The notes beneath the pieces were generated by a model. It was not told the DNA's origin. It did no database searches and was given only the letters and a program-made list of their open reading frames with translations. A stretch of 32,000 nucleotides of DNA from Candidatus Lokiarchaeum ossiferum (GTDB lineage: Archaea; Asgardarchaeota; Lokiarchaeia; Sigyniarchaeales; Promethearchaeaceae). Both the position numbers and the translations under genes were made by a program. Below, in pieces: positions 3 to 31,287 of this stretch (positions are counted from its first letter, which is position 1; every line of letters starts with the position of its first letter). Where the stretch lies: assembly GCA_025839675.1 (NCBI GenBank), contig CP104013.1, positions 4,110,001 to 4,142,000 of the forward strand, written 5' to 3'.

Positions 3-311
3 TCCTTAATACCGATATTATCATTGACAGGAATTGGAATTTTATATGTTATATATTCTCCTCTTGGTTTAATTTTTGGAATTGCATGGATTGCTTTAAT
101 GATTGAGCTCACTCCGAAACAATTTACTGCATGGTGGTACCAAATATTTGCACTAGTGGTACTGTTAACTCGAATTATTTTCGAATTTGTTGGATTACGA
201 ATAGCTCATAAGCTCGGTGCAGCCCCTCTGTTTTATGCGGCTGCCGTTTTAATTCTCATAACTCTGCCAATCTTAATCAAAGTCATGAAATTGAAATCCC
301 TACCAGAGTAA
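3..311 (+). CDS. small hydrophobic membrane protein, possibly 5'-truncated by the window edge
   Basis: ORF 24..311 begins at TTG. The same frame is stop-free back to nt 3, so the gene may start upstream of the window. The translation is almost entirely hydrophobic (about 3 TM helices). No family recognised. Confidence 0.4.
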   Translation, partial: SLIPILSLTGIGILYVIYSPLGLIFGIAWIALMIELTPKQFTAWWYQIFALVVLLTRIIFEFVGLRIAHKLGAAPLFYAAAVLILITLPILIKVMKLKSLPE

Positions 312-317
312 ACTTTT

Positions 318-1025
318 TTAAATGGCTAATGGAATAATTTTTTCGTTACTTCTGGGTTCTTGCTCTTCATTTTTGATACTTCGGAATGTCCATACCATAC
401 TAAAGAGTAATACTAGCTCTCCTAAGGATCCGAAGACTAATCCAAAAATCGAAGCGGGAAGTGCACTCATGATGAAAATAATAATTCCTCCTGCCAAAAG
501 ATACCAAGAATGTTTACGAGATTCATGAAATATTGCTCCACCTAACCCAATGCAAATGACCACAACTGCAACAGATGCATAAGGAAATGATTTAGCTGCT
601 GTGTGACTCTGAGTATAATATAATATTCCATCAAAATATCGTGGTTCTAATGTGATTCCCAGAAGATGGGTGAATACCCCAAAGAAAATAAAGGCAATGG
701 TTATTCCCCACGTCAAATATGATGGAATCAGTTTTGATTTACCTCGATCCACTCGATAGAAGTTTAGTAGCGTTATCCCGGCTGGGATGAGCAGGGGAGT
801 AAAAAAAGCATGGATGATGAAGCGACCGAAATTTAAGGTGTGTAAGAGCTCTGATTCTCCGAGCAATGTGCCTATTGATACAACGATGGTGTCATATATT
901 AACCCTATAATTACAATCATAATTGTTCCGTCTAAATAAAGAGTGTTTTTCATAGTTTTTATAGAAAATACCAATAAAACAATGAACAACACTGCAAGAA
1001 TTGGAAATATAATATTAGAGATCAT
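318..1025 (-). CDS. polytopic membrane protein (about 7 TM), unknown family
   Basis: ATG-initiated 235-aa ORF with regularly spaced hydrophobic segments and a charged C-terminal tail (KNEEQEPRSNEK). The overlapping + strand ORF 322..528 is an antisense artefact. Confidence 0.6.
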   Translation of the reverse strand: MISNIIFPILAVLFIVLLVFSIKTMKNTLYLDGTIMIVIIGLIYDTIVVSIGTLLGESELLHTLNFGRFIIHAFFTPLLIPAGITLLNFYRVDRGKSKLIPSYLTWGITIAFIFFGVFTHLLGITLEPRYFDGILYYTQSHTAAKSFPYASVAVVVICIGLGGAIFHESRKHSWYLLAGGIIIFIMSALPASIFGLVFGSLGELVLLFSMVWTFRSIKNEEQEPRSNEKIIPLAI

Positions 1026-1130: not shown

Positions 1131-1502
1131 TTACTCCTTTTTTTGAGATGATGCAAGAATTTCTTTGATATTTATTAATAGATCCTTCTGAGAGAATGGT
1201 TTTAATCGGTATTTAAGCCCTATTTTAAAAATTTCCAGTTCAACTAATATTTTTTCCGAATATCTTGAGATAAATAATACTAAAACGTCTGGTTTTTCTT
1301 TCACAATTATTTCAATTAGTTCAGTCCCATTCATTAAAGGCATAATCATGTCATTAATAAATAAATCCATAGAATTTTAATGAGCACGAAATATAGATAA
1401 AGCTTGGAGAGGATCACCCGCGATAAGTACATTATAACCGCTGTTTTTTAAATGATTTTGAAATAATTTGCGAGGTTGCGGTTCGTTTTCCACGATTAAC
1501 AA
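1131..1502 (-). pseudogene. CheY-like response-regulator receiver domain interrupted by an in-frame TAA (nt 1377-1379)
   Basis: Hand translation of the minus strand in one frame gives ...(TTG)LIVENEPQPRKLFQNHLKNSGYNVLIAGDPLQALSIFRAH-STOP-NSMDLFINDMIMPLMNGTELIEIIVKEKPDVLVLFISRYSE...LKPFSQKDL. The receiver landmarks are all present: an N-terminal acidic beta1 end, the phospho-acceptor Asp in 'LFINDMIMP', Ser in 'LFIS' and Lys in 'KPF'. There is no ATG upstream of the stop; TTG at 1500-1502 is the best start. The frame is open up to nt 1574. Confidence 0.6.
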
Positions 1503-1609
1503 GGTTTCATTTCTAAAAAGATCCTTTTTTGCAATATTTTCACGTTTTTCTTGTTTTGAAACTGATAAATTCCATCAGTGATCTCTGGAAGAGGGTTGAT
1601 ATTTTTTAA

Positions 1610-2755
1610 TCAATAGACTCCATCTGTGTGTTTGAGAAAAGGGAAGATTTCATTAAATATTTCTTCTCCCGCTTTATACCTCTCATTTGAACTGGGAGTA
1701 TTCTTTAATGATTCTTCAAACATCGATTCAAACTCCTCAACAAACTTTTTGAGTCCCTTTTGCAAAACCAGAGAAACCTGATTTGTTGCTACCGTTGCTG
1801 TGATATATTCTCCTGAATCCAATATCAATGAGACATCGCTATTGATGATTTTTGTTATATAACCTTTTGATTTTAAGGAGGATTGATGCAATGTAGTTAA
1901 AGTCGAATTTAGAAATGTGAAATAGTTTTCATCCAGTTCATTTTTCGTATTTTTGGTTTCGAAGGTTAACGATAGCAAATTTAACTTTGTTTCTTTGTGA
2001 ATAACTATCAACATGTAATGATCGAAGGGTAATCGGAAAATGTATTTTAGATTTAAAGTGCTAACTATGAGAAATAAACTGAATCCGATGACAGTCAAAA
2101 CTTCTCCAATTTTACGCGCTAAACTTAAAGCAAGGGATAGCTCATCAAACGAATAAGGTATAATTATTACTAGTCCCATTACATATCCCAAAGTTGTGAT
2201 AACCATCGAAATATAAAAAAATTCAGATAGTTTTTCAGAAGTATATTTCCACATGTTGTAACACACCGGAATTCCACAAAATCCAAAAACAAATATCTGT
2301 AGTCCCTTTAAACTTAATCGACATATGAAGTACATCATATTGTTAACAGGTGATTTAAAAATTATTTCATTGTAAGTCAAAACTAGATAGAAATAACCCA
2401 TCACGGTTACTGTAATAAAAAATACTATCAGTGAAATGTCCCGTTGGGAACGTTTTATCCTTCTTAATCCATCTAAAAATATATAAAAGAAAAAAATCTG
2501 AAGGCAATAAAGAAATATATAAAAACCTCTGAGAGCTAATTGTCCTTGCTTTGAAGGTATGATTTTTAAAAAATATAAGCAAACAAAAATTAAATTTAAC
2601 ATCCCTAATAAGTAGGCTAAGAAGAAATCCTTAACGGGACGATTTTGATGCTTCCGTTTGTAATTTATAAGGAAAATTCCAAATAGAAGAAAAATTCCGA
2701 AATTTGATAAAAAATCATATGATAATACAGTAACCATTTTTAAAATGAATATCAC
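1610..2755 (-). CDS. 7-TM membrane protein with a C-terminal cytoplasmic alpha/beta (roadblock/longin-like) domain
   Basis: 381-aa ORF with GTG at 2755 and an alternative ATG at 2737. Seven hydrophobic helices span aa 1-235. They are followed by about 140 soluble residues with a beta-beta-alpha-beta-beta-alpha pattern (MLIVIHKETKLNLLSLTF / LDENYFTFLNSTLTTLHQSSL / ITKIINSDVSLILDS / YITATVATNQ / LVLQKGLKKFVEEFESMF). The domain assignment is inference. Confidence 0.7.
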   Translation of the reverse strand: MIFILKMVTVLSYDFLSNFGIFLLFGIFLINYKRKHQNRPVKDFFLAYLLGMLNLIFVCLYFLKIIPSKQGQLALRGFYIFLYCLQIFFFYIFLDGLRRIKRSQRDISLIVFFITVTVMGYFYLVLTYNEIIFKSPVNNMMYFICRLSLKGLQIFVFGFCGIPVCYNMWKYTSEKLSEFFYISMVITTLGYVMGLVIIIPYSFDELSLALSLARKIGEVLTVIGFSLFLIVSTLNLKYIFRLPFDHYMLIVIHKETKLNLLSLTFETKNTKNELDENYFTFLNSTLTTLHQSSLKSKGYITKIINSDVSLILDSGEYITATVATNQVSLVLQKGLKKFVEEFESMFEESLKNTPSSNERYKAGEEIFNEIFPFLKHTDGVY

Positions 2756-2975: not shown

Positions 2976-3626
2976 ATGGACATGAAATCTTCAGTGTTTT
3001 GGTTGACAATTTTATCTATTGTGGTCTTAACTTTCATCATTCTAAGTATTCTATCCGTTCACAAAATTCGCAGATATCGACAAACTGTTTTCTACCATGA
3101 AATACAATCACTTGAGTCTTTTTTAGATATTTTAGATAATAGTGACAATCATATAGATGGAACGCTAAGAACAAAAATTTCAAAAGAAATTCTTAAAATT
3201 GTTAGAAAAAAACCCCAATTGTTGACTATGGTGCCATCAAATGATAAAAGTAAAGTTTCTGAAAATCTTGAAACACAATTATTACCAAATCAATTCCTCA
3301 AACCTTATCCTTTTAATATTCTGTTGGCTCTCTCGAACTTGGGAAAAACTTATTTCACAACCCTTTTAAAAACTTTGAAAATGAGCAAAGGAAATTTAAA
3401 CCATCATTTAAAAAAACTTCAAGAACAAGATTTAGTAAAAGAAGAAAATGATTTGATGGATTTTCGTCGGAAAACATGGGAAATTACACCACAAGGTAAA
3501 CAAGAATTCAACACCTTGGTTCATAATTTGAAGAATCGTCTTCAGAAATTCGAACCTCCTAGTTCTCTGCTGGTGAATGAACAGGGGCGAGTGAAATCTT
3601 ATTCGATAATTCAAACGGCCAATTAG
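2976..3626 (+). CDS. membrane-anchored winged-helix (ArsR/MarR-like) DNA-binding protein
   Basis: One N-terminal TM helix (VFWLTILSIVVLTFIILSILSV). The C-terminal part has a wHTH pattern: FNILLALSNLGKTYFTTLLKTLKMSKGNLNHHLKKLQEQDLVKEE...RRKTWEITPQGKQEF. Confidence 0.7.
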   Translation: MDMKSSVFWLTILSIVVLTFIILSILSVHKIRRYRQTVFYHEIQSLESFLDILDNSDNHIDGTLRTKISKEILKIVRKKPQLLTMVPSNDKSKVSENLETQLLPNQFLKPYPFNILLALSNLGKTYFTTLLKTLKMSKGNLNHHLKKLQEQDLVKEENDLMDFRRKTWEITPQGKQEFNTLVHNLKNRLQKFEPPSSLLVNEQGRVKSYSIIQTAN

Positions 3627-3808: not shown

Positions 3809-4405
3809 ATGAAAAATTCCAAAATAATTGCCATGAGTGTATTATTCTTATGTACACTTTCTTTCCTCAATTTAGGAAATGCTTATGTGACTCCTCCTGA
3901 TTCACCATTGGTTGTCGGAAATAAATATTGGACTGAATATAATATGATTTATAGTCAAAAAAGTGGATGGACTTATAAAAAAAGATTCACTATCACAGTT
4001 CAACTTTGGACGACGTGTAAAGAATCTCCATATGGGGGGAAATATTTAGATGTTTACGCAGTTGGTTTATATACATATGCTGGTTTGGTTGCACAAAGAG
4101 GTGTTTCAGTGACAACAAGTGGAGATTATATTATCTGCCAAAATGTTGGTAGTGGAAGTGCTCCAACTGTTGTTCAGATTAAAGCTAGCCCCATAATTTA
4201 TTGCAATGGGGCTACTCTTAATCCTGTTATAATCCTTCAATTAGATATTATGGGTGGCCATAAATTAGATGTGGACATTAATTCATTACCTGGTGGTTGG
4301 AAAATATCAAGTTCCGAAGTAGAAACTGAAGGTCTTCCATATAATGTAGATACATTAGACACTTTAACTTCGGTATGGGAGAGAAGTTTTCAACAACAAG
4401 CCTAG
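3809..4405 (+). CDS. secreted or surface protein of unknown function (signal peptide, probably all-beta)
   Basis: The N-terminus MKNSKIIAMSVLFLCTLSFLNLGNAYV looks like a signal peptide. The mature part is G/T/V/S/Y-rich, unlike the K/I/F/E-rich neighbours. No family recognised. Confidence 0.65.
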   Translation: MKNSKIIAMSVLFLCTLSFLNLGNAYVTPPDSPLVVGNKYWTEYNMIYSQKSGWTYKKRFTITVQLWTTCKESPYGGKYLDVYAVGLYTYAGLVAQRGVSVTTSGDYIICQNVGSGSAPTVVQIKASPIIYCNGATLNPVIILQLDIMGGHKLDVDINSLPGGWKISSSEVETEGLPYNVDTLDTLTSVWERSFQQQA

Positions 4406-7838: not shown

Positions 7839-8660
7839 ATGATCTTGATGAAAAACCAAACTCCCCAGAATATTGAAGAGAAGTCTACGATTTGGGGGGA
7901 TATTAAGTTCAGTTTTCATCTATATAAGCAAAATTTCAAACCGATTTTTTGGGTGTCTTTAATCCGATTTTTGGCCATATATTCGGCAAGTCATGCCTTG
8001 CGTTTTGTATTTCACCAACAAATCTACAACTCAATGCCCAATATGCCTGTGATGTGGATTGAGTGGCTACTTCGAGTTCCTTCCGATCTCATTAGTTTTG
8101 GCTTTTGGGGGGCAATAGTTGGAATGGCCTATGATATTATGTCTTCTGGAGATGGTTTCGCAGATCTTAAGAATTCATTTTATTATATCAAGAAATATTG
8201 GTTTCCGTTTGTTATCTTAAGTCTTTTGGTCAATTTATTTATCTATGTCATTCGTCTGGTAATTCCTTGGTATGTAAGCATGGGAGAAGCGATTATTTTG
8301 CGGACCTTTTCCTTTTTTTGGAGTTTGCTGTTTGTGGAAACTTCGGCAGGATTGGTAAGTCGCCACAATATTCGAGATGCTCTGAAGGATAACTTTAAAC
8401 TACTGTTCACATGTTTTAAACGAATTTTTAAAACTTTTGGTGTATTTTATCTTTTATTCATGGTAGGGCGAATTCTTCTCGGCTATTATTTATGGTACTA
8501 TGGAAATCCATCTTCAATCGTGCATTTAATTGTAATAATTGTATTATATACTTGGAATGTCATTCATGGCTTTTTAGGTTCTCCAATGTACGCATTTTTA
8601 ACCATTGGAATCTATAATGAAGAATTGCGGTATAAAAATCAAGAAATTAAGAATGTATGA
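7839..8660 (+). CDS. 6-TM membrane protein, paralog 1 of the 'YDIMSSGDGF' family (unknown function)
   Basis: 273 aa, with ATG at 7839 or 7848. It shares the block FGFWGAIVGMAYDIMSSGDGFADLKNSFYYIKKYWF (nt 8097-8204) with ORFs 9274.. and 10191... It also shares the N-terminal 'IKFSFHLYKQNFKPIF' amphipathic lead-in and the C-terminal 'FLTIGIYNEE' ending. Confidence 0.75.
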   Translation: MILMKNQTPQNIEEKSTIWGDIKFSFHLYKQNFKPIFWVSLIRFLAIYSASHALRFVFHQQIYNSMPNMPVMWIEWLLRVPSDLISFGFWGAIVGMAYDIMSSGDGFADLKNSFYYIKKYWFPFVILSLLVNLFIYVIRLVIPWYVSMGEAIILRTFSFFWSLLFVETSAGLVSRHNIRDALKDNFKLLFTCFKRIFKTFGVFYLLFMVGRILLGYYLWYYGNPSSIVHLIVIIVLYTWNVIHGFLGSPMYAFLTIGIYNEELRYKNQEIKNV

Positions 8661-8721: not shown

Positions 8722-9105
8722 TTATTGAATACCGGGCCATTCAAAATGAAAAGTGAAATGCAATGCACTGGTACGATAATACTTAAGCAAAATTCGTTTT
8801 TTATTGATTTGAGTTCTAGCCACCACAACTACCCCATACTTCTGTAGCTCGGAAATATGTCGTTTAACCGTACCCGGATTCATTCCGGTAGCAGTGCTTA
8901 ATTCCATGATAGTTTTTTCTTGGGTTAACAAAATTTCAAGTAAAATTTGCTTTTTTTCATGGGTAAAACTGGGAATGACATTTGGGTCTGTGATAATCAT
9001 GTCTTCTGCAGGAATAAAGGTCCCTTCATTTGCATCTGAACTGCGAATATCCTCTGGAGAATTAAAATTTGGTGAATTGCGTCGTTTTGTATTTCCATCT
9101 TCCAT
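8722..9105 (-). CDS. ArsR-type wHTH transcriptional regulator, paralog A
   Basis: 127 aa. IITDPNVIPSFTHEKKQILLEILLTQEKTIMELSTATGMNPGTVKRHISELQKYGVVVVARTQINKKRILLKYYRTSALHFTFHFEWP shows the HTH_20/ArsR pattern. It is clearly paralogous to 10990..11424, preceded by a disordered N-terminal tail. Confidence 0.75.
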   Translation of the reverse strand: MEDGNTKRRNSPNFNSPEDIRSSDANEGTFIPAEDMIITDPNVIPSFTHEKKQILLEILLTQEKTIMELSTATGMNPGTVKRHISELQKYGVVVVARTQINKKRILLKYYRTSALHFTFHFEWPGIQ

Positions 9106-9273
9106 TGTAATTACCCAAATCGATCCAGTCGATATTTAATATAGAAAGAAGCTGGTTAATATTTATAAATTCTGATTGAGAAATCATAATTTGTTCAAAA
9201 AAAGATGAATAAAGCGAGTTTTTTATAAAACCCTTACGAAATTTTTTATTCATTGTGTAAAATAGACTATAGT

Positions 9274-10074
9274 ATGGAAGCTGGGGAACAAAATGGGGCG
9301 ATATCTGTTGATGTAAAATCAGATTATAAGCTCAGCTTCTCTTTATTCAGGGAGAATTTTCGTCCCTTCTTCATTGTTCTATTAATTGGGTTTATTGTTT
9401 TCAAAGGAATAGATCATTTATTGACTCGTTTTGTGCTTCCGCTAATCTTAAGTAATTGGTTCTTTGTTGATCCCGCTACAATCATATTTTTCTTCTTTTT
9501 ACCTGGAGATAGTATCTTTTTTGGATTTTTTGGGGCTGCCATGGGTTTAGGGTACGATATAATGTCTTCAGGTGATGGTTTCACCGAAGTTCGGAATTCC
9601 CTGTTCTATATCCGAAAATACTGGCTGAAATTTTTCTTCTTTTGCTTCTTTTTTAACATTTTTACCTATTGGTTACTATATTTGAGTTTTTTTACTATTC
9701 CTTTCCATACCAGTATTATTTTCCATGGCCTAAGCTTGATTTGGGTGATTCTCTTTTCCAACATTTTCCCTGCCCTGGTTCATCGGGATCAATTTCTCCC
9801 CGCTTTCAAGGATAATTTTCAAATTCTTTCTCAACAATTTGGCCGAGTGATTATCACATATCTGCCATATTATTTGATTTTTGTTTACTTTCGCTCCGGA
9901 ATAAACATATATCGTAATTTCTTTGTACTCGATACCACTGATCTTTATGCATTTCTCAGTATTACAACTAGCATCTTAGAAATCCTATATGTTTTTGTGG
10001 GATTTCCTATTTTCGCTTTTCTTTCTTTAAGTATGTACAATGAAATAATTACCAACCAACAAATGGAGAAATAA
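9274..10074 (+). CDS. 6-TM membrane protein, paralog 2 of the 'YDIMSSGDGF' family
   Basis: The ORF track starts at TTG 9253. ATG 9274 is preferred because it places 'YKLSF' at the same distance from the start as in paralog 3. An A/T box (TTTTTATT, about 9244-9251) also lies about 23 nt upstream. Conserved block FGFFGAAMGLGYDIMSSGDGFTEVRNSLFYIRKYWL at nt 9520-9627. Confidence 0.75.
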   Translation: MEAGEQNGAISVDVKSDYKLSFSLFRENFRPFFIVLLIGFIVFKGIDHLLTRFVLPLILSNWFFVDPATIIFFFFLPGDSIFFGFFGAAMGLGYDIMSSGDGFTEVRNSLFYIRKYWLKFFFFCFFFNIFTYWLLYLSFFTIPFHTSIIFHGLSLIWVILFSNIFPALVHRDQFLPAFKDNFQILSQQFGRVIITYLPYYLIFVYFRSGINIYRNFFVLDTTDLYAFLSITTSILEILYVFVGFPIFAFLSLSMYNEIITNQQMEK

Positions 10075-10190: not shown

Positions 10191-10985
10191 ATGGTCGATA
10201 TCGATTCCGAAATCTCTCCCTCCTATGATATTGAGAAAGAATATAAGTTGAGTTTTGACTTATTCAAAGACAACTTTAAACCTTTTTTTATAGTCTTGCT
10301 AATAGGATTTGTAATTTATATGGCTTTGGATCATTATTTGACCAAAATTATTCTACCCAATATCAATTGGATGGACCTCAAAATTTCCCGTCAATTGATG
10401 CTATTTATCATATATTTACCGGGGGACAGCATATTCTTCGGATTTTTCGGAGCAGCTATGGGATTGGGCTATGATATAATGTCTTCGGGTGATGGATTTA
10501 CGGAAGTTCGGAATTCACTTTATTATATACGGAAGTATTGGTTCAAATTCTTTGTCTTTTGTTTCATTTTTAATATTTTTTCATATTGGCTATTATATCT
10601 TGCAGTAGATCACATTCCTCTCAATATATATGTATCATTCAAAATTCTTAATTTTTTCTGGATAATTCTATTTTCAAATGTATTTCCCGCCTTGGTTCAC
10701 AGAAAAAAACTATTAATTGCCGTGAAAGAGAATTTTGAGATACTTTCCCATAGTTTTGGACGCGTAATCTTGACTTATTTACCATACTACCTTATTTTTA
10801 CACAAATCCGTACTGGAGTTTTAATTTATCAGCATTATGTTATCTTTGATATGGAAGATCTTACGACGAACATAATAAAATTTTGCCTGACTGTATTTTA
10901 TGTCTTTATTGGATTTCCCATTTTCGCTTTTCTATCTTTAAGTATGTATAATGAAGAAATTCGGAGTCAAGAATTAGATAAATAA
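10191..10985 (+). CDS. 6-TM membrane protein, paralog 3 of the 'YDIMSSGDGF' family
   Basis: 264 aa, very similar to paralog 2 along its whole length (e.g. FKPFFIVLLIGF, LPGDSIFFGFFGAAMGLGYDIMSSGDGFTEVRNSLYYIRKYWF, FPALVHR, GFPIFAFLSLSMYNE). Conserved block at nt 10437-10544. Confidence 0.8.
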   Translation: MVDIDSEISPSYDIEKEYKLSFDLFKDNFKPFFIVLLIGFVIYMALDHYLTKIILPNINWMDLKISRQLMLFIIYLPGDSIFFGFFGAAMGLGYDIMSSGDGFTEVRNSLYYIRKYWFKFFVFCFIFNIFSYWLLYLAVDHIPLNIYVSFKILNFFWIILFSNVFPALVHRKKLLIAVKENFEILSHSFGRVILTYLPYYLIFTQIRTGVLIYQHYVIFDMEDLTTNIIKFCLTVFYVFIGFPIFAFLSLSMYNEEIRSQELDK

Positions 10986-10989
10986 TGTG

Positions 10990-11424
10990 TTAGGGCCATT
11001 CAAAATGAAAAACAAAGTGAAATGCTGTTGTTCGATAATATTTTAGTAAAATTTTTTTTTGATTAAACTCTTCTCGGGCAACAACAACTAGAGTTCCCTC
11101 GACAAGGTCTGTAAGATGACGCTTTACCGTTCCGGGATTCCAGCCGGTGGCCGTACTAAGTTCCATAATTGTTTTTTCTGAATGTAGCAGCAAGTCTAAT
11201 ATTACTTTTTTCTTCTCATGGTTGATTAATGGAATAATATTAGGATCGGTGATGAGAAGTGTGTCTTCTGGCTCGTATTTACTCTTTTGAGGAAGAGAAT
11301 CGCTCTTCGAATCGTTTATTGATATTTTTCTTCTTCCTCCTATTTTCTTTTTTATTTCCCTATATTGGTAAGTAAAAGATATAAAAAAACCTTTATTGTC
11401 AAATTTAGTTCCGTTTTTATCCAT
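10990..11424 (-). CDS. ArsR-type wHTH transcriptional regulator, paralog B
   Basis: LITDPNIIPLINHEKKKVILDLLLHSEKTIMELSTATGWNPGTVKRHLTDLVEGTLVVVAREEFNQKKILLKYYRTTAFHFVFHFEWP. The ORF is open to a TTG at 11478. ATG at 11424 is preferred because 'MDKNGTK' parallels 'MEDGNTK' of paralog A. The stop lies 4 nt from the stop of 10191..10985 (convergent). Confidence 0.7.
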   Translation of the reverse strand: MDKNGTKFDNKGFFISFTYQYREIKKKIGGRRKISINDSKSDSLPQKSKYEPEDTLLITDPNIIPLINHEKKKVILDLLLHSEKTIMELSTATGWNPGTVKRHLTDLVEGTLVVVAREEFNQKKILLKYYRTTAFHFVFHFEWP

Positions 11425-11598
11425 AAAAAAATTTTTGCTAATCCGTTCATATTTTGTGAAATTTAGCTTGTTTTTCAATAATTTTATCGAATAGATTTTA
11501 TGTAATGAATTTTCGTTTTTGGATGAGAATTGGTTAAGTACATTTTTTAATTTAGCCAGCTAAGTGACAACTAATTTACAAAAAATATCGCGATTTTT

Positions 11599-17488: not shown

Positions 17489-18154
17489 ATGAGTCTTTTA
17501 CAAGTCATTCGAACCACGTTTCTGGTCATTACTACCCTCATTGGAGTCTATTCCTCCGTGAAAATTATCCAGAAAAATAAAACTTTGATGAATTATTTAA
17601 TGGCGGCCTATACCTTTCTGATTGGATTATATACGTTCACCGTAATCCTATATGATTTCATTACTGAATTGGTCTATTTCTTGATTCCCTTCGGAATTTT
17701 AGCGTTATTTTTATCTACTCTTTCCATCTATTTCTCAGTTCAGTGTATGCTTAAATCCCAAGAATGGTTTGATAAGAAAGAGCGTTGGATTCCGTTTCTA
17801 ATTCTTTGGGTGGCATATGCAATTATTCTGTATTCTGTGGATCTTGTAACTATCGTGAGTAATGATGATGTGATTAACACTCAAGTAGAAATGTGGCCGC
17901 TCTTAATAGGCATTGTATTCATTATGTTTTTCTTGATTTTCACCTTAGTTAATTTGTTTCAAGCCTCTAAAGCCTTTGAAACTCCCAATCAAAAAGTTCA
18001 GTTGTTCATTTATTCTGTGAGTATCAATATAGTTGCTGTAATTGTCAGTGTTATTTCCCAAGTTGTTACTGATGGAGGTTATATCGATTTAGTATTTTAC
18101 ATGTTGATTTCCATATCGGCATTAATCATGTTAAAAGTGTTTAATTCCAAATAG
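17489..18154 (+). CDS. 7-TM membrane protein, unknown function
   Basis: 221 aa with seven evenly spaced hydrophobic helices. A GGAG-containing purine tract (AAAAGGAGA) lies about 10 nt upstream of the ATG. Confidence 0.65.
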   Translation: MSLLQVIRTTFLVITTLIGVYSSVKIIQKNKTLMNYLMAAYTFLIGLYTFTVILYDFITELVYFLIPFGILALFLSTLSIYFSVQCMLKSQEWFDKKERWIPFLILWVAYAIILYSVDLVTIVSNDDVINTQVEMWPLLIGIVFIMFFLIFTLVNLFQASKAFETPNQKVQLFIYSVSINIVAVIVSVISQVVTDGGYIDLVFYMLISISALIMLKVFNSK

Positions 18155-22991: not shown

Positions 22992-23237
22992 AATTGCTCC
23001 TTGTTGAAAGTAAAAGATTTCTTCAAAAGTAATATCAAATTCGTTATTCAAATTAAATAAATTCTCCATTTATTGCGCGAGAATTTTGCTGTAATTAGCA
23101 CTTATTATTACCAGACGAAAAATTCGATATAATTGATGTAACCAGTTCAAAAATTAGAAGAAAGACAAAAATATTCTTAGATTTTTTTTGTAATTAGAAT
23201 TTTAAATGGTGGGGAGTAATTATGTCATTTGTGTAAA

Positions 23238-25343
23238 ATGAATTTCAAAAAAAAAATGTTACAGTTAATTTTCATCGCTTGGATAATTCCCCCGTTAGTT
23301 TGGTTTGGTATGAATTTACTTGCTCAACTTTGGACTTTTGATGAATTGATCATATTGCTGACTACATTTCAAGTCCCTCTCATCGTTGTAGGTGTAACAA
23401 CAAGCGTGATGGTTTTTAGCAATCATTTCATAACCCGAATAGAGAATTATCTGAAGTCACCAGATAAGGATAATGAATTAATGATTCAAAACATCATAGC
23501 GCGTTTCCCAATTTGGTTATTCCTCATATATCTTGTTTATTGTTTTGGAGGACCCGCTCTTGGTCTGGTAAATAGGTTTTTTGAACCACGAGAAGTCGTT
23601 TTTTCCATTTTCTTAGGTTTTCCAACAATAATGTTGACTCTTATTCCTTTTTTAATAAAAATAATTTACATGTTGTCTGAATGGACAATTGAAATTCCTT
23701 TACCTGAGAAGCGAATGTCAATTTCAGTGAAAATGCGTATTATTCTTATGGCTTTTTTTACTATAATAGGAATTAGTTTGACCATTTTTTTGTCGACGTT
23801 GGCATTGATAAATGCAAATCTGGGATCAAATGAGGATATCTTTGGAGTTATTCTCCGAAAAATAGGTCTAATTTTGTGCATTTTCTTAGGTCTTAGCATT
23901 TTCAATGTAGTTTATATGTCCCAGATAATTTCAAAATCGATAATTAAATGTGCCGATATATCTGCTGCAATTGCATTAGGGGATTATAATCAGAAATTAG
24001 AGAAAGAATCGCGGGATGAGTTAGGATATCTAATGAATTCATTAAGTACGATGACACTTTCAATAAAAAAGAACATTGAACTAAATCGACTCTTTTTCGA
24101 TTCAACAGATGCGCCAATGATTTATTTAAATTCAGAATTGGTGATTCAAGATATTAGTAAATCCTTGGTTGAGTTGAGTAAAATTCCTAAAAATAGGTAT
24201 ATTGGTAGTGATTTAAGGCAAATATTCCAAAATTCAAGTGATTATGAACTTAGTGTAGAAAGTCTTAAAGTTCAGGATAAAATAGAAAACTATGAATTTA
24301 TACTGAAATCCAATCAACAAAAGAAAAAAATTTGCTCTATAAATGCAGAGATTCTCATTTCTTCAGCAAATAAAAAGATTGGGTATTTAGTCACATTGAT
24401 CGATATGTCGAAGATAAAACACCTTATTGAAAATGTATCAACAATTTCTGAACAAGTCACTCAAATGGCCCATGAAATCGCAGAGTCTTCAAATCAAGTA
24501 AATGAAACTGTCCAGAATATCTCTGAAGAGACTCAAAATGTCTCTCACACTGCTCAAATGCAAGTTGAACAATTGAATCAAATATCAAGAGCAATTCAAG
24601 AGATTCAAACATCAAGTAAAAATAATGTAGGTGGGATGGAGGATATCGTAAAGCAATCGAAAGCTGGGCAAGAAATGGCCAAAAAAAGCAAAAATTTAAC
24701 AGTTGATTTGTCTGTCAAAATGACTGAAATCAATAGTGGGGCTCAAAATGTCTCAAAAACTATGATTGCTCTTGAAAAAATTAGCAAGGATATCAATAAA
24801 ATTGTAGAGTCAATTTCAAGTATTGCCACAGAAACTAATCTTCTGGCATTGAATGCTGCAATTGAAGCGGCTAGGGCTGGAGATGCTGGAAAAGGATTTG
24901 CTGTTGTTGCAGAACAAGTGAGAACCTTGGCTGAAGATTCAAAAAAAGCTACTAATCAGATAACTGAGTTAATTAGTGTCATTCAGAAAGAAGTTCTGGA
25001 TGCTGCTAAATCAACCAATATAACTGTTCAATCCATTGTAGATGGATTAAATGCTTTGAACTTAACAAAAGCTCAATTAGATGAACTTTTTATAATCATT
25101 GATTCAACGGATACAGGAATAAATCAATCTATAAATAATATTAATGTTCAGGATGGAAAGATCCAGCAAATTGTATCAAATATTGATCGCATTGGAGAGT
25201 TGATTAACAGCAATTCAATATCTGTTCAACAATTATCCTCGACAACGGAAGAAATGTCTTCCATCTTGGAAGAAACCTCTGCAGCATCAGAGGAATTAAA
25301 CGCCGCTTCAGTGAATTTATTCACCGAAATAAAACAATTGTAA
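23238..25343 (+). CDS. methyl-accepting chemotaxis protein (6-TM input module, HAMP, PAS, MCP signalling domain)
   Basis: The ORF is open from TTG 23229; ATG 23238 is preferred. Six TM helices (aa 10-235). HAMP-like [33 protein letters not shown]-like aa about 285-395. The highly conserved MCP hairpin core is [44 protein letters not shown]. Confidence 0.9.
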
Positions 25344-25520: not shown

Positions 25521-27461
25521 TTATTCATTTTCCAGTTGAAAAGAATTGAAAAGTACATTGGTTATATTTACCCTATCTTTTTCACAAACAAAACAACTCG
25601 CATCTAAAGAGTGTGTTAAAATATCTTTAGAACCATATTGATTAGCATTGAAATTTTTAAGAAATTGCTTGATTTTCGATTGTGCGAAATAGCTGTTCCC
25701 TTTGAAAATGTAGCAAAAAACAAATGGGGGGGCTCGAGCTAACGCTAGAAAACTGTCTCCAATGATGGCACGATCAAAGGAATCTGCGAATAATTCCGTA
25801 CAAAAGGAGTTCATGGCTGAGAGAAACGCACTAAGCATTTGCTCATCAATACTAAGCGAATGAGAAAATGAATGTTTATATAATGCAGTCCCAGTTTCAT
25901 TCATAATAACAAATAAAAGAGGTTGTTCTTCTTTGACCTCACTATTTGTATATCCTTTTTCTAAGTTCATGACTGCTATTTGTTCCTGAATTCCGGAATA
26001 TTGAACCCGTTCTGATAGTCCAGCCTTGGTATTTTTCATTTCCATCAATTTGGATTCTTCTAGTAATATTTTATCATGTTCGTTGGACACATGAATGGCT
26101 AGTTTAGTTAGACCATTTTTTTCCGCAATTTTTTGAGCCTCAATTAAAAACTTCCGGCTTTCAATAAAATCAAGTAATATCAATGATAATTTAGCACGTA
26201 ATAACAAAGTTTCACCTAATATAGAATGTGACCCACTTTTTTTTGCAATATGTTGTAACCGGGTGATTAATTCATCAATTTCAGTAATTATTTCTTGTTC
26301 ATTAGTCGTTTTTAGATCAGTGATAAGTAATTCACACAAATTTATGATTGCATGAATCATATAATCAAACTCATAATTTTTTTCTTGAACAAGGTCTAGG
26401 AGTATAGTTTGGGCTTGATATCGATCTCGAGCTCGATGACTTGCCTTTAAAATGAAAGCTTGCGCAATTTTGAATCGGAAAATAAGGTTTTTTGATTGTT
26501 CGATTTCTACAATTTTTTCAAACTGGAGTAAATATTGTTGAGCTTCTTCAATATTCTGCTGTTCTAGCAAAGTTCGAATGATACTAAAAATGATATTTGT
26601 CATCCTATAATTATTTCCAAGTTTTTCTCCAATATTGATTGCTTGGAGTAAATAGTGATGCGATTGCTCCAAATCACCCAATTGGCGGTAAATATTTCCT
26701 ATGTTATCTAAAATTGAGCAATATAGGGATATATTCTCCGTTTTACTAATAATCTCAGAACTTTTCTTTAAATAACTTAAAGCTTTTTCAAAATGCCCTA
26801 TTCGCTGATATATCCATCCAATATTGTTGTAAATTATTGTCAAATATGAAATATCATTGATTTCACGACAATTTTCTTCAGCTTCCATTAAAAATTGCAA
26901 TCCAACGTCAATTTGTCCTGCTGCATTATTAATTACAGATTTTGAAACTAATAACTTGGCGATTTCTTTTTTGTTGCCAAATTTCCTTTGTTTTTGTAAA
27001 AGATCATCTAATAAAGTGGTTGAGCTGTCATAACTCCCCTTAGTCCATAAAATTGCACAATAATAGTATCCTAGCATTGCTTCCCGTTTTGTAACTTCCT
27101 TTTGGGAGATATCATGTAAGGCGGATATTAGTTGTTGACCAAATTCAATATATTTCAATGCTTGCTCTAATTTACCCGATCGGTAGTATGATTCGACACA
27201 TTCTATTATAAAATCTAAGGAAATGAGTGGAAATCCTTCTAGTTGGCATTTACGGTAAAATTCCAACGCAAGTGTTATTACTTCTTGATAGTTTGCTTTT
27301 AAATTTAGTATTCTTATATGTTCGAGTTTTATCAGAAATCGATTTTGCTTTGAGAGTTCATATTTTTCATCTAATTCTTTAATAATTAGCAACGCTTCAT
27401 TATATTTGCAAAGATTGAATAGGTTTTTGATTTTTTCATATTTTTTGGTAAAATCAACCAT
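25521..27461 (-). CDS. TPR-repeat scaffold protein with a C-terminal roadblock/longin-like alpha/beta domain
   Basis: 646 aa. About 480 aa of TPR-like helical repeats (e.g. YNNIGWIYQRIGHFEKALSYLKKS, LDNIGNIYRQLGDLEQSHHYLLQAINI). After a linker, the C-terminal domain reads PLLFVIMNETGTALYKHSF / IDEQMLSAFLSAMNSFCTELF / DRAIIGDSFLALARA / FVFCYIFKGN / YFAQSKIKQFLKNF. This has the same secondary-structure order as the C-terminus of 1610..2755. Confidence 0.8.
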   Translation of the reverse strand: MVDFTKKYEKIKNLFNLCKYNEALLIIKELDEKYELSKQNRFLIKLEHIRILNLKANYQEVITLALEFYRKCQLEGFPLISLDFIIECVESYYRSGKLEQALKYIEFGQQLISALHDISQKEVTKREAMLGYYYCAILWTKGSYDSSTTLLDDLLQKQRKFGNKKEIAKLLVSKSVINNAAGQIDVGLQFLMEAEENCREINDISYLTIIYNNIGWIYQRIGHFEKALSYLKKSSEIISKTENISLYCSILDNIGNIYRQLGDLEQSHHYLLQAINIGEKLGNNYRMTNIIFSIIRTLLEQQNIEEAQQYLLQFEKIVEIEQSKNLIFRFKIAQAFILKASHRARDRYQAQTILLDLVQEKNYEFDYMIHAIINLCELLITDLKTTNEQEIITEIDELITRLQHIAKKSGSHSILGETLLLRAKLSLILLDFIESRKFLIEAQKIAEKNGLTKLAIHVSNEHDKILLEESKLMEMKNTKAGLSERVQYSGIQEQIAVMNLEKGYTNSEVKEEQPLLFVIMNETGTALYKHSFSHSLSIDEQMLSAFLSAMNSFCTELFADSFDRAIIGDSFLALARAPPFVFCYIFKGNSYFAQSKIKQFLKNFNANQYGSKDILTHSLDASCFVCEKDRVNITNVLFNSFQLENE

Positions 27462-28491: not shown

Positions 28492-31287
28492 CTAAACCAT
28501 GAATTTTTTTTTTTTCAAATCAATTTTTTCTATAGCCAATCTCAGTTCCTCCAAAGTAAAAGGTTTGGGTATAGCATAATCGAATCCATATTTTTCATAA
28601 TTCGCCATGACTGGATCTGTGGAATATCCTGAAGATACAATGGCAAAAATCGTTGGATCAATTTCCCGAATTTTCGTTAAAGTTTCCAAGCCTCCAATAT
28701 CTCCAGGGATGGTTAAATCCAGAATTACTGCATCAAAACCATGTCCTGATACAAATTCTTCACCTAAAATTGATATTGCTTCAATTCCCCCATAGGTTAT
28801 ATAGCTAAAGCACTTTAACTTTTTGAGCATCATCGATATGGTTTTTAGGACTGTTTCTTCATCATCCATGACTAAAATACGATAGTTATATGGGATTTGC
28901 TGAGTTTTTTTAGCTCTTTGTTCAAGTTTTACTTGGTGCTGAGATGCTGGTAAATATATGAAAAACGTCGTTCCTTCTTCAATAATTGAAGAGAATGTAA
29001 GCAATCCTCCATGGCGCGAAATAATTGAAAAACTCGTGGCCAATCCTAAACCTGAGCCATGTTCTTTTGTTGTGAAAAATGGACTAAAAATCTTTTCTTG
29101 AAATTCCTTCGGAATACCTGTTCCTGTATCATGGAATGAAATTTGAACATAATTCCCAGAAGAAAGGGGGAGATTTGAATTATTTTTTTGAGTAAAATTT
29201 CTGGCGGTTATCAACAATTCTCCGCCTGTAGACATTGCTTGATCAGCATTTATTGCGATATTATTTATGACTTGGTTGATTTGTCCTCTATCAATTTCCA
29301 CAGTAGATAAGTCGTCAGCTAAATCATACACACACTTAACTTTGGATCCACGTAAAACAAAATTCACCGACTCTTGGATTAACTCTTTAAGGTTTGCTGT
29401 TTTTTTTATGGGGGCTCCTCCTTTCGAAAAGGTCAGTAATTGATTGGTTAAATCTTTAGCTCGAATTGTTGCCTTTTCTACTTCATTAAGAGATTCAAAT
29501 TGTTCCGAATCTGGATTAATATCATATTTCAACAAAGATAAATTTCCTAATATAGAAGTTAAAATATTATTGAAATCATGAGCAATTCCTCCAGCGAGTA
29601 TTCCTAACGATTCTAATTTTTGGATTTTGATTAATTCTTCTTCAAGTGCTTTTTGATCGGTGATATCAAGCGCGATTCCTCCAATTAGGGGATCTTTTTT
29701 TGGCCGATCAATGCGGAATTTTATGCTTTTAACCGTTCGTACTGTTCCGTCTAAATGCCTTATTGTATCCTCCTGATCCAGAATTTTTTGTTGTAAAATT
29801 ACTTTATTTTCTTTTTCCTTAAACTTGACTTCTTCAACATCAAATAAATCTTTAATTTTCATTTCTCTCCAATTTTTCCCAAAAACATGTTCCTCAGCGT
29901 ATTTATTTACATATAAATACTTTCCATCTAAATCTCTTAGATATATTGATCCTTGGATGTTGTCCATAAACATTGAAAATAATTCTTGGGAATCTCGTAG
30001 ATCCGCTTGACTCGTTTGTAATTCTTGTAGATGTTTTTTTTGTTTTGTGATATCACGTTGAAAGGAGATTAATGCTGTTATGTTTCCATCATCATCAAAA
30101 ATTGCCGATCCCTTGCACTCCACTTCCATAATCTTTCCAGATTTATGAATTAATTCTACTTCAGCATAATTACTTCCCGTTTTTAATAACTGAGGAAAAT
30201 TTTCCTGAAAAATTTGTTGGGATTTTTTAGTAAAGAATTTGGTCATTTTTGATCCCTCAATTTCTTCGCGAGTATAGCCTGTTCCATCCACTGCTGCTTG
30301 ATTTGTTTTAAGGATGATCCCTGAAGTATTCATGATATGAATGAAATCTTTAGAGGTCTTTAGTAGTGAGCTAAATTTGATTTCCGATTTACGTTGTTGC
30401 TGTTCTGCAATTTTTTGTTCGGAAATATCCCGACATATTCCCATAAACTCATAAATTTCGCCTGTTTCAGAAATAATGGGTGCAAAACTGGTGAATAAAT
30501 GGGCATAGGTACCATCAGCTCTTTGGAAACGATAGTTTATATTATCAACTGTCTTTCCATGATATAGGGGTTTTAAAACTTCATTTAATTGATGAAGATC
30601 ATCGGGATGGATATAATCAAATCCATTTAGTGAAAATACTTCAGGTATTGAATATCCGAGCATTTCTGTAAATCCAGAATTAATAAACTTATATTCTCCT
30701 TTGGTATTCACTCGAAATATTGCAACCGAAGGATTTTCTACTAACAATCGATAATTTTGCTCTGATTCTTTTAAGGATTGTTGAGCTTGTTTTTGTTCCG
30801 TAATATCTTCAGCAATACCAACGATTTTTGTAATTATTTCATTTTCTCCTTTGATAATGAACCCCCGATCGGAAATCCAACGAACCTCTCCATCAGGACG
30901 AACTATACGATAATCTCGGATCTTACCTCCCCCAGTTTCAATAATTTTTCTGAAGGACGCGTCAGCTTCTATTTTATCATCTGGATGGATGCTCTTTTCC
31001 CAAAGACTATAATCCTGAAGGATGTCATTCGGTTCCAAATGCCAGATTTCTTTAAAAGCTGGACTTACATATACTACTTTTTGCTTCTGTAAATCAAATA
31101 TCCAAATGACTTCTTTAATTTCTTCGATTAATGCTTTAAAATCATGTTCGTGGCCGATCTGTGTAAATAATTCTTGTCCTCTTTTAAATAATTGCTCTTT
31201 TGCGATATTTGCTCTAAATCGATTTATTAATTCGATTTCTTGATCTATCGGTAATTCTAAGCTTTTAATGAAATCGAGATCATCCAT
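28492..31287 (-). CDS. cytoplasmic hybrid sensor histidine kinase (4x PAS, HisKA, HATPase_c, receiver)
   Basis: 931 aa with no TM segment. There are four PAS/PAC units, each ending in a D-I-T/S-x-Q-K motif (AEDITEQK, CRDISEQK, QRDITKQK, ALDITDQK). H-box GGIAHDFNNILTSILG. G-boxes HDTGTGIP and GSGLGLATS. The C-terminal receiver reads ILVMDDEETV...DAVILDLTIPGDIGG...AIVSSGYS...KPF. Confidence 0.9.
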   Translation of the reverse strand: MDDLDFIKSLELPIDQEIELINRFRANIAKEQLFKRGQELFTQIGHEHDFKALIEEIKEVIWIFDLQKQKVVYVSPAFKEIWHLEPNDILQDYSLWEKSIHPDDKIEADASFRKIIETGGGKIRDYRIVRPDGEVRWISDRGFIIKGENEIITKIVGIAEDITEQKQAQQSLKESEQNYRLLVENPSVAIFRVNTKGEYKFINSGFTEMLGYSIPEVFSLNGFDYIHPDDLHQLNEVLKPLYHGKTVDNINYRFQRADGTYAHLFTSFAPIISETGEIYEFMGICRDISEQKIAEQQQRKSEIKFSSLLKTSKDFIHIMNTSGIILKTNQAAVDGTGYTREEIEGSKMTKFFTKKSQQIFQENFPQLLKTGSNYAEVELIHKSGKIMEVECKGSAIFDDDGNITALISFQRDITKQKKHLQELQTSQADLRDSQELFSMFMDNIQGSIYLRDLDGKYLYVNKYAEEHVFGKNWREMKIKDLFDVEEVKFKEKENKVILQQKILDQEDTIRHLDGTVRTVKSIKFRIDRPKKDPLIGGIALDITDQKALEEELIKIQKLESLGILAGGIAHDFNNILTSILGNLSLLKYDINPDSEQFESLNEVEKATIRAKDLTNQLLTFSKGGAPIKKTANLKELIQESVNFVLRGSKVKCVYDLADDLSTVEIDRGQINQVINNIAINADQAMSTGGELLITARNFTQKNNSNLPLSSGNYVQISFHDTGTGIPKEFQEKIFSPFFTTKEHGSGLGLATSFSIISRHGGLLTFSSIIEEGTTFFIYLPASQHQVKLEQRAKKTQQIPYNYRILVMDDEETVLKTISMMLKKLKCFSYITYGGIEAISILGEEFVSGHGFDAVILDLTIPGDIGGLETLTKIREIDPTIFAIVSSGYSTDPVMANYEKYGFDYAIPKPFTLEELRLAIEKIDLKKKKFMV

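Follow-up and report, generated by a model that had tools for sequence, protein, structure and literature searches.

A 7TM-longin fusion protein of Candidatus Lokiarchaeum ossiferum: a widespread Asgard family and a copy with an altered putative docking face

Introduction

Does the seven-helix membrane protein encoded at one locus of Candidatus Lokiarchaeum ossiferum signal through the two-component receiver whose open frame follows it, or does it act through the soluble domain that it carries at its own C-terminus? The locus lies in a stretch of 32,000 nucleotides (contig CP104013.1, positions 4,110,001 to 4,142,000; GC of the source sequence 33.6%), which we call the window and whose coordinates are used throughout. 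An earlier description made from the letters and their translations (the sequence-only reading) had assigned the C-terminal domain to the roadblock/LC7-longin superfold, and had proposed a path from the membrane part through this domain to a CheY-like output encoded directly downstream.

Soluble longin and roadblock proteins of Asgard archaea belong to the same expanded superfamily and are known in modular fusions, as far as the accessible parts of the sources go (PMC10933270; 10.1101/2020.10.19.343400; PDB 8yqg). Forty-one longin domains have been reported in Loki (PMC10933270, accessible part), and the fusion partners described include GTPase, TRAPPC3, DENN and two-component domains (PMC10933270; bioRxiv 10.1101/2020.10.19.343400); a seven-helix domain is not among the partners named in those portions of the two reports. 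A 2026 preprint counts '7TM proteins' among families that Eme 2023 or Liu 2021 had already described. Our literature search found no description of a 7TM-longin fusion, although the tables of Liu et al. 2021 may list one.

Results

The gene, its membrane domain and the junction

The 7TM-longin gene occupies 1610..2755 on the minus strand and reads as 381 amino acids from a GTG, with a pN/pS of 0.15 against the sister strain, whose counterpart (also Ca. Lokiarchaeum ossiferum) is 97% identical. Its likely start is the ATG at 2737, six codons after the GTG, where the sister-strain record and the Atlas entry both begin, and which would probably give a protein of 375 amino acids. Synonymous divergence between the strains is uneven: the longin part stands at 0.20, the membrane part at 0.04 and the receiver remnant downstream at 0.01, a pattern that suggests patchy recombination across the gene. 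A scan of the locus for promoters and terminators, using models of bacterial type only, remained at chance level.

The heptahelical module that had been claimed for the protein is borne out by seven hydrophobic segments in the sequence and by seven helices in an AlphaFold2 model of the whole chain, which was built from an 83-row alignment and shows, with confidence (pLDDT 91.1, pTM 0.89), a seven-helix bundle followed by a longin domain. The helices span residues 2-35, 42-62, 69-98, 104-126, 136-172, 175-203 and 208-234, and together form the membrane domain (2054..2752, minus strand; residues 2-234), which is modelled as a GPCR-like bundle. Averaged over the family, loops 1, 3 and 5 hold 2.3-3.5 Lys and Arg residues each and the alternate loops 0.5-1.0, and because the positive charges are concentrated in loops 1, 3 and 5, these are taken to be the inner ones, placing the N-terminus outside and the C-terminal domain in the cytoplasm.

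Helix 7 leads into the longin domain through a conserved junction motif (2027..2044, minus strand; residues 238-243), which reads Y-I-Y-R-L-P in the family and is best conserved at Y238 (76%), R241 (78%) and P243 (90%). In the family alignment the inner halves of the helices are better conserved than the outer halves (p = 0.027), and the helix-7 junction and the longin domain are the best conserved parts of all, a gradient that would fit a variable input joined to a conserved output. Neither part of the full-length protein matched Pfam at threshold, and a PDB sequence search with the full-length family profile returned no match.

The fold of the C-terminal domain

A soluble C-terminal domain is indeed present, of ~135 residues against the roughly 140 first estimated, and this longin domain (1634..2029, minus strand; residues 243-374; pN/pS 0.09) ends on a near-invariant Phe-Pro. 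The element order given for it previously is corrected: the predicted order is beta-beta-alpha-beta-beta-beta-alpha-alpha, that of longins, and the secondary structure of both models, of the whole protein and of the domain folded alone (pLDDT 87), shows a five-stranded sheet in longin order with a short beta3.

Fold searches gave confident longin matches. When the isolated domain was searched with VIA, the 22 best rows were all longins, covering residues ~1-132 at Z 10.2-13.1, and those at Z 11.8-13.1 aligned over 112-123 of the 132 domain residues. Fuzzy was the top match (Z 13.1; 122 residues at an rmsd of 2.9 A), and lower rows include Sec22 (Z 12.9), Vamp7 (12.5), TRAPP (11.8) and Mon1-Ccz1 (11.2). 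The Foldseek matches (E 5e-4 to 8e-4) were longins as well: Fuzzy, a core subunit of TRAPP and the sigma subunit of an AP complex. Roadblocks appeared in the same VIA search from Z 10.1 down and covered only model residues 1-110; their alignments begin at roadblock residues 12-29 and end at about residue 110 because roadblocks lack the last helix, which the model has as an extra C-terminal helix. At the other end, only a five-residue junction helix precedes beta1, and the N-terminal helix of Roadblock/LC7 proteins (MglB, LAMTOR) is missing; it is in these terminal helices that the two folds differ, as described in the accessible part of PMC10933270. The assignment to the roadblock/LC7-longin superfold thus holds, on VIA, Foldseek and element order, and can be narrowed within it: as modelled, the domain is a longin and not a roadblock. 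A GAF or PAS identity was also considered and rejected, as both fold searches were free of such structures in their top 50 rows and the elements follow the longin order.

The domain had further been likened by eye to the C-terminus of a TPR protein in the same window (gene 25521..27461, minus strand; 646 amino acids), whose homologous longin-like domain lies at 25524..25925. Pairwise BLAST between the two domains found no match, and profiles were needed to establish the relationship: comparison of two separately built profiles gave a probability of 97.6% (E 3.3e-12), with all controls (reversed, receiver and GTPase profiles) below 5%. Iterated HMM searches arrived, whichever domain served as seed, at one common set of 84-86 genome proteins, both included. 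The presence of two longins in one window carries no special meaning, because both are members of a superfamily that is large in this genome, where longins are also fused to TPR proteins, to 11-13-helix proteins (carrying three longins) and to very large proteins.

The downstream receiver frame

The receiver frame does follow on the same strand with a gap of 35 nucleotides (1575-1609), as described. The intact CheY-type receiver gene that was read into it did not survive inspection. The stretch at 1131..1610 (minus strand) is a pseudogene, the linker and receiver of a hybrid histidine kinase tail, and lies outside the 7TM-longin system. It is interrupted in frame by a TGA (1575-1577) and a TAA (1377-1379), both also present in the sister strain, and has no start codon ahead of the domain: its first in-frame start is a TTG at strand beta1, from which 41 residues can be read, ending before the phospho-acceptor Asp, and in the 79-residue ORF beyond the TAA the receiver domain is without its first half. 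Sequencing error and TAA read-through were rejected as explanations, as the stops occur in both strains and TAA is the commonest stop in the genome, which makes recoding unlikely.

The substitutions agree with this picture. Between the strains the receiver frame differs by 1 synonymous and 9 non-synonymous changes. The 7TM gene has 22 and 13 (Fisher p = 0.004), and the 7TM gene pooled with three neighbours 62 and 34 (p = 0.001). The pN/pS of the frame is 2.3 (10 changes, a small count), that of the 7TM gene 0.15; purifying selection on the frame was not detected in this comparison of two strains with small counts. The remnant is most similar to the end of a 640-amino-acid hybrid kinase, whose linker and C-terminal receiver it matches (35%, E 3e-12), and we therefore regard it as the tail end of a kinase since lost, not as a CheY gene. 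A former fusion of the 7TM gene with a kinase was likewise rejected: hybrid kinases match 1149-1571 only and nothing inside the 7TM gene, and within this genome none of the homologs of the 7TM part has a kinase or receiver domain. Elsewhere in the window (28492..31287, minus strand) a hybrid histidine kinase that is rich in PAS domains and ends in a receiver is still intact; the dead receiver derives from a kinase of this type.

That the 7TM-longin protein nevertheless signals through an adjacent CheY-like receiver is suggested by the shared strand and short gap, by the phospho-acceptor Asp and Lys-Pro motif that the remnant retains, by the reported fusion of Asgard longins to two-component domains (bioRxiv 10.1101/2020.10.19.343400, accessible part), and by a receiver-containing ORF within 3.5 kb of 3 of the 14 copies in this genome (this locus included; 6% expected, p ~0.05). 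Set against this are the two stops in both strains, the excess of non-synonymous change and the kinase origin of the remnant, together with the lack of any kinase domain in the 7TM-longin protein. At homologous loci of other genomes no receiver was found within 1.5 kb (0/29) or within 3.5 kb (0/40), so the count at these 69 loci is zero, and the closest ortholog has a glutamate dehydrogenase downstream and no receiver. We consider this path scarcely credible, and with it the output proposed by the sequence-only reading falls away: the receiver downstream is an unrelated pseudogene, the decayed tail of a hybrid histidine kinase. A false lead is thereby removed, since nothing here supports a link between 7TM-longin proteins and two-component receivers.

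Range of the family

The architecture is not confined to this locus. Clustered at 50% identity, the family comprises 110 representatives, most of them 350-410 amino acids long and matching both domains, and its profile matches 191 of 201 Asgard genomes at E 1e-10, including all 85 high-quality ones; some of the weak genome matches may be longin-only, and the best matches listed span the whole model in many families. This genome has ~14 copies of the 7TM-longin gene among ~85 longin proteins, in keeping with the Asgard expansion of the superfold to which the protein had been assigned. All named family members that were looked up are annotated 'hypothetical protein', and one, on a 3-kb contig, is labelled Bathyarchaeota.

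Likeness to known seven-helix proteins

In VIA the membrane domain aligned with Ste2 at Z 14.5 (rmsd 3.6 A, 211 residues aligned), with many class A and class B receptors within 2 Z units, though helical bundles may come close to Z values of 13-14.5 through a shared arrangement alone, without kinship. The family shares with GPCRs the seven-helix bundle and the N-out/C-in orientation. It differs from them in sequence, with 5-12% identity and a consensus that lacks DRY and NPxxY, and no Pfam 7tm family is listed among the 83 family members. To our knowledge, coupling to a heterotrimeric G protein is not expected in an archaeon, and none is implied for the family. A microbial rhodopsin was considered on account of K215 and rejected, as Lys stands there in 3 of 83 rows and no Lys column in helix 7 exceeds 14 of 83.

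The nearest analogue in design is offered by the plant and fungal 7TM-RGS fusions such as AtRGS1 (PMC12017998, accessible part), in which a seven-helix domain is joined to a cytoplasmic G-protein regulator; the output domain of the present family is a longin and not an RGS box. Among prokaryotic sensor modules, HisKA_7TM (PF16927) and 7TMR-DISM_7TM (PF07695) are of similar size and likewise stand N-terminal to an output domain, which in the present family is a longin and not a kinase or cyclase. The Atlas neighbours of the protein are auto-named after HisKA_7TM, and the 7TM part alone reaches a feature score of 0.83-0.84 to HisKA_7TM clusters, below the 0.9 mark, with no Pfam HisKA_7TM match in the protein or the genome; 7TMR-DISM_7TM is matched weakly by 3 of 83 family members and by none at curated thresholds. 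We treat a tie to the HisKA_7TM sensor modules as a lead only.

An altered putative docking face in this copy

The longin fold of the family is also that of TRAPP Bet5/Trs23 (Sybindin, PF04099), Mon1-Ccz1 and Fuzzy-Inturned (Fuz_longin_1, PF19036), the eukaryotic longin-dimer platforms, to which family members show weak Pfam matches (best E 2e-6). The family departs from these platforms in that its longin is fused to a seven-helix domain, with one longin per chain. In Mon1-Ccz1 and TRAPP the GTPase-binding surface is formed by the alpha1 helices, and all exchange activity is lost in the double mutants Mon1 G232P/K233D, Mon1 G250W/T254K and Ccz1 G106W/G110M (PMC5216073).

Three positions of the family longin may bear on this surface. 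Position 257, in the beta1-beta2 turn, is Gly in 95% of the family, and positions 281 and 285, one helical turn apart (i, i+4) in alpha1, are Gly in 78% and Ala in 75%. In the family profile the alpha1 Gly falls, if weakly (E 0.11), on the alpha1 Gly of Bet5, and the small residues are spaced like the pairs mutated in Mon1 and Ccz1; this alignment and spacing suggest that 257, 281 and 285 may be equivalent to the Bet5, Mon1 and Ccz1 positions. The copy studied here carries K257, F281 and T285 instead (G257K, G281F, A285T; 1901..1987, minus strand), and the replacement of these three conserved small residues is what is new here. The combination is unique to it among the 58 longin proteins of the genome, and among 80 aligned homologs it recurs only in the sister-strain twin. 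The small residues that may correspond to those of the longin-dimer GEF platforms are thus kept by most family members and lost from this copy, which is bulky on its putative docking face. It is a member of a small clade in which the alpha1 glycine is replaced by a bulky residue: the 41%-identical ortholog, which falls in the same clade (100/99), has an Ile at 281, the register being fixed by flanking residues. In about one fifth of the other family members, too, the residue at this position is not a small one, so that position 281 is not absolute and variation of the docking face recurs.

Might this copy be a duplicate on its way to decay, its longin function lost? Several of the most conserved family residues are gone from it, its branch is long and a pseudogene adjoins it. 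Yet its frame is intact in two strains, its fold is predicted with confidence, the ortholog has a change at the same site (281), and with 18 synonymous and 6 non-synonymous changes between the strains its longin part (pN/pS 0.09) is under strong purifying selection. We hold decay to be very unlikely. Rather, this copy is probably not a canonical GTPase dock, and may be a variant that is non-docking (GTPase-blind) or re-targeted.

A homodimer model supports, with a score of 0.51 against 0.00 for the best control, dimerisation of the protein through helix 4 (2375..2446, minus strand; residues 104-127), which forms the centre of the modelled interface. The model has a pLDDT of 71-72, and the runs agree in at least 67% of contacts. 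Of proteins whose structures were solved as pairs, 20 of 30 reached the mark that the model passes, against 1 of 23 single chains; these counts are rough, the alignment used being our own, and a resemblance to GPCR dimers of known structure may account for the pass. Confident contacts fall in helix 4, the loop that follows it and residues 300-305; alpha1, which in TRAPP and Mon1-Ccz1 pairs antiparallel beside a sheet that runs on across both longins, is not named among them, which is no evidence of its absence from the interface.

Neighbouring genes

A winged-helix regulator whose N-terminal part contains a single hydrophobic segment is encoded divergently from the 7TM-longin gene (2976..3626, plus strand; Pfam HTH_34, E 9e-10). 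Its gene is the only neighbour shared with the locus of the nearest non-conspecific ortholog (41% identical; locus L023), where it holds the same position at 43% identity. In that locus the end of a second 7TM-longin gene (3..431, plus strand) lies just past the winged-helix gene. This sharing raises the possibility that the present copy and the membrane-anchored regulator form a two-gene transcriptional module, in which this copy would signal to the regulator or come under its control and the altered face would bind the regulator or another non-GTPase partner, and it is in keeping with such a module that the two 7TM-longin proteins belong to one clade (100/99) and have a bulky residue at 281, and that both genes are under purifying selection. 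The pairing is nevertheless seen at two independent loci only, where it may be plain synteny, and in a search of 151 genomes of the order the regulator was matched elsewhere in its helix-turn-helix part alone. We judge this module distinctly improbable.

The surroundings hold several further genes. Between the winged-helix gene and a gene for a 464-amino-acid regulator, 3809..4405 (plus strand) encodes a 198-amino-acid protein with a signal-peptide-like start; the same slot in the sister strain (L001, 4302..4925, minus strand) holds a 207-amino-acid protein of the same kind that is unrelated to it (no BLAST similarity), and as the flanks are ~97% identical between the strains, the slot appears to be a swappable one for secreted proteins. 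Three paralogous membrane proteins of 264-273 amino acids with a motif conserved in their centre (Y-D-I-M-S-S-G-D-G-F) are encoded at 7839..8660, 9253..10074 and 10191..10985 (plus strand), with two ArsR-like winged-helix genes interleaved on the opposite strand (8722..9105 and 10990..11478); two of the three were scanned and had no Pfam match. A 235-amino-acid multi-helix membrane protein at 318..1025 (minus strand), with no Pfam match and no paralog in the genome, is kept in the sister strain (pN/pS 0.16) and scores marginally to the 7TM profile. Another, of 221 amino acids, stands alone at 17489..18154 (plus strand), with four genome paralogs (E 6e-19 or better) and no Pfam match, and 23229..25343 (plus strand) encodes a methyl-accepting chemotaxis protein with HAMP and PAS-like parts and ~18 relatives in the genome.

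Small-GTPase genes were counted near family members. Across homologous loci, 11 of 40 have one within 3.5 kb, where windows placed at random in this genome would lead one to expect 7.8% (binomial p 2e-4, or 0.007 with each group of related arrangements entered a single time), a null that is drawn from one genome and sets aside that kin loci are not independent. Within 1.5 kb, among the 29 best loci, the count is 2 of 29 and near chance, so the signal is found only at 3.5 kb and in the second locus set. Among tandem 7TM-longin pairs, 4 of 5 have a small-GTPase gene directly alongside, and these four (L079, L081, L088 and L092) are the best candidates for receptor-GTPase coupling; a GTPase gene is adjacent at L024, too. 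The organism has roughly 70 small GTPases, and none of the 14 copies in this genome has a GTPase gene within 3.5 kb. Asgard small GTPases have been reported not to lie in operons with regulators, and the tagged proteins not to localise to membranes in HeLa cells (PMC10933270, accessible part).

These counts bear on whether the family has to do with GTPases at all. The seven-helix part could be a mere anchor or transporter-like scaffold and the longin a general interaction or cargo-sorting module, with neither signalling nor GTPase regulation: longins that are not GEFs (Sec22, Vamp7 and the AP sigma and mu subunits) take ranks 2-10 in the fold search, the same longin sits on the TPR, 11-13-helix and very large proteins of the genome, and the 14 copies here all stand apart from GTPase genes; the first and the last of these points also weigh against the reading we prefer. 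A passive tether, however, would not need the conservation seen at the junction and the inner helix ends, GTPase genes are enriched near homologs, and the family retains the small-residue pattern of GEF longins. A scaffold of this kind seems to us a serious possibility but on the whole an unlikely one.

Discussion

The reading towards which we lean, with only a little more belief than doubt, is that the family consists of membrane-anchored sensors or scaffolds in a longin/small-GTPase network, and that this copy, though still dimerising, may be non-docking or re-targeted. The bundle would pick up a cue with its variable outer half, and the signal would pass through the conserved inner ends of the helices and a rigid helix-7 junction, so as to reposition or dimerise the longin. 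The alpha1 face of the longin would then dock a small GTPase or a partner longin, as happens in TRAPP and Mon1-Ccz1, complexes whose fold it shares. In this copy, with its altered face, docking may be lost or re-targeted while the protein dimerises in the membrane.

A bolder proposal, which we put forward as speculation and think rather doubtful, is that Asgard archaea possess GPCR-shaped receptors in large numbers, each with a GTPase-docking longin of its own as a GEF/GAP platform, a link within one chain from receptor to small G protein that would predate eukaryotes, and that GTPase-blind members dimerise with active paralogs to tune or block their signalling.

With its longin fixed to a seven-helix bundle, this widespread and multi-copy family is a concrete candidate for the membrane dock of Asgard GTPases, and would be a candidate precursor of the logic by which eukaryotic receptors act on G proteins. 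L. ossiferum is in culture, and its genome encodes both the altered copy and a canonical paralog of the same clade (genome positions 3905949-3907082), which together make a built-in control pair.
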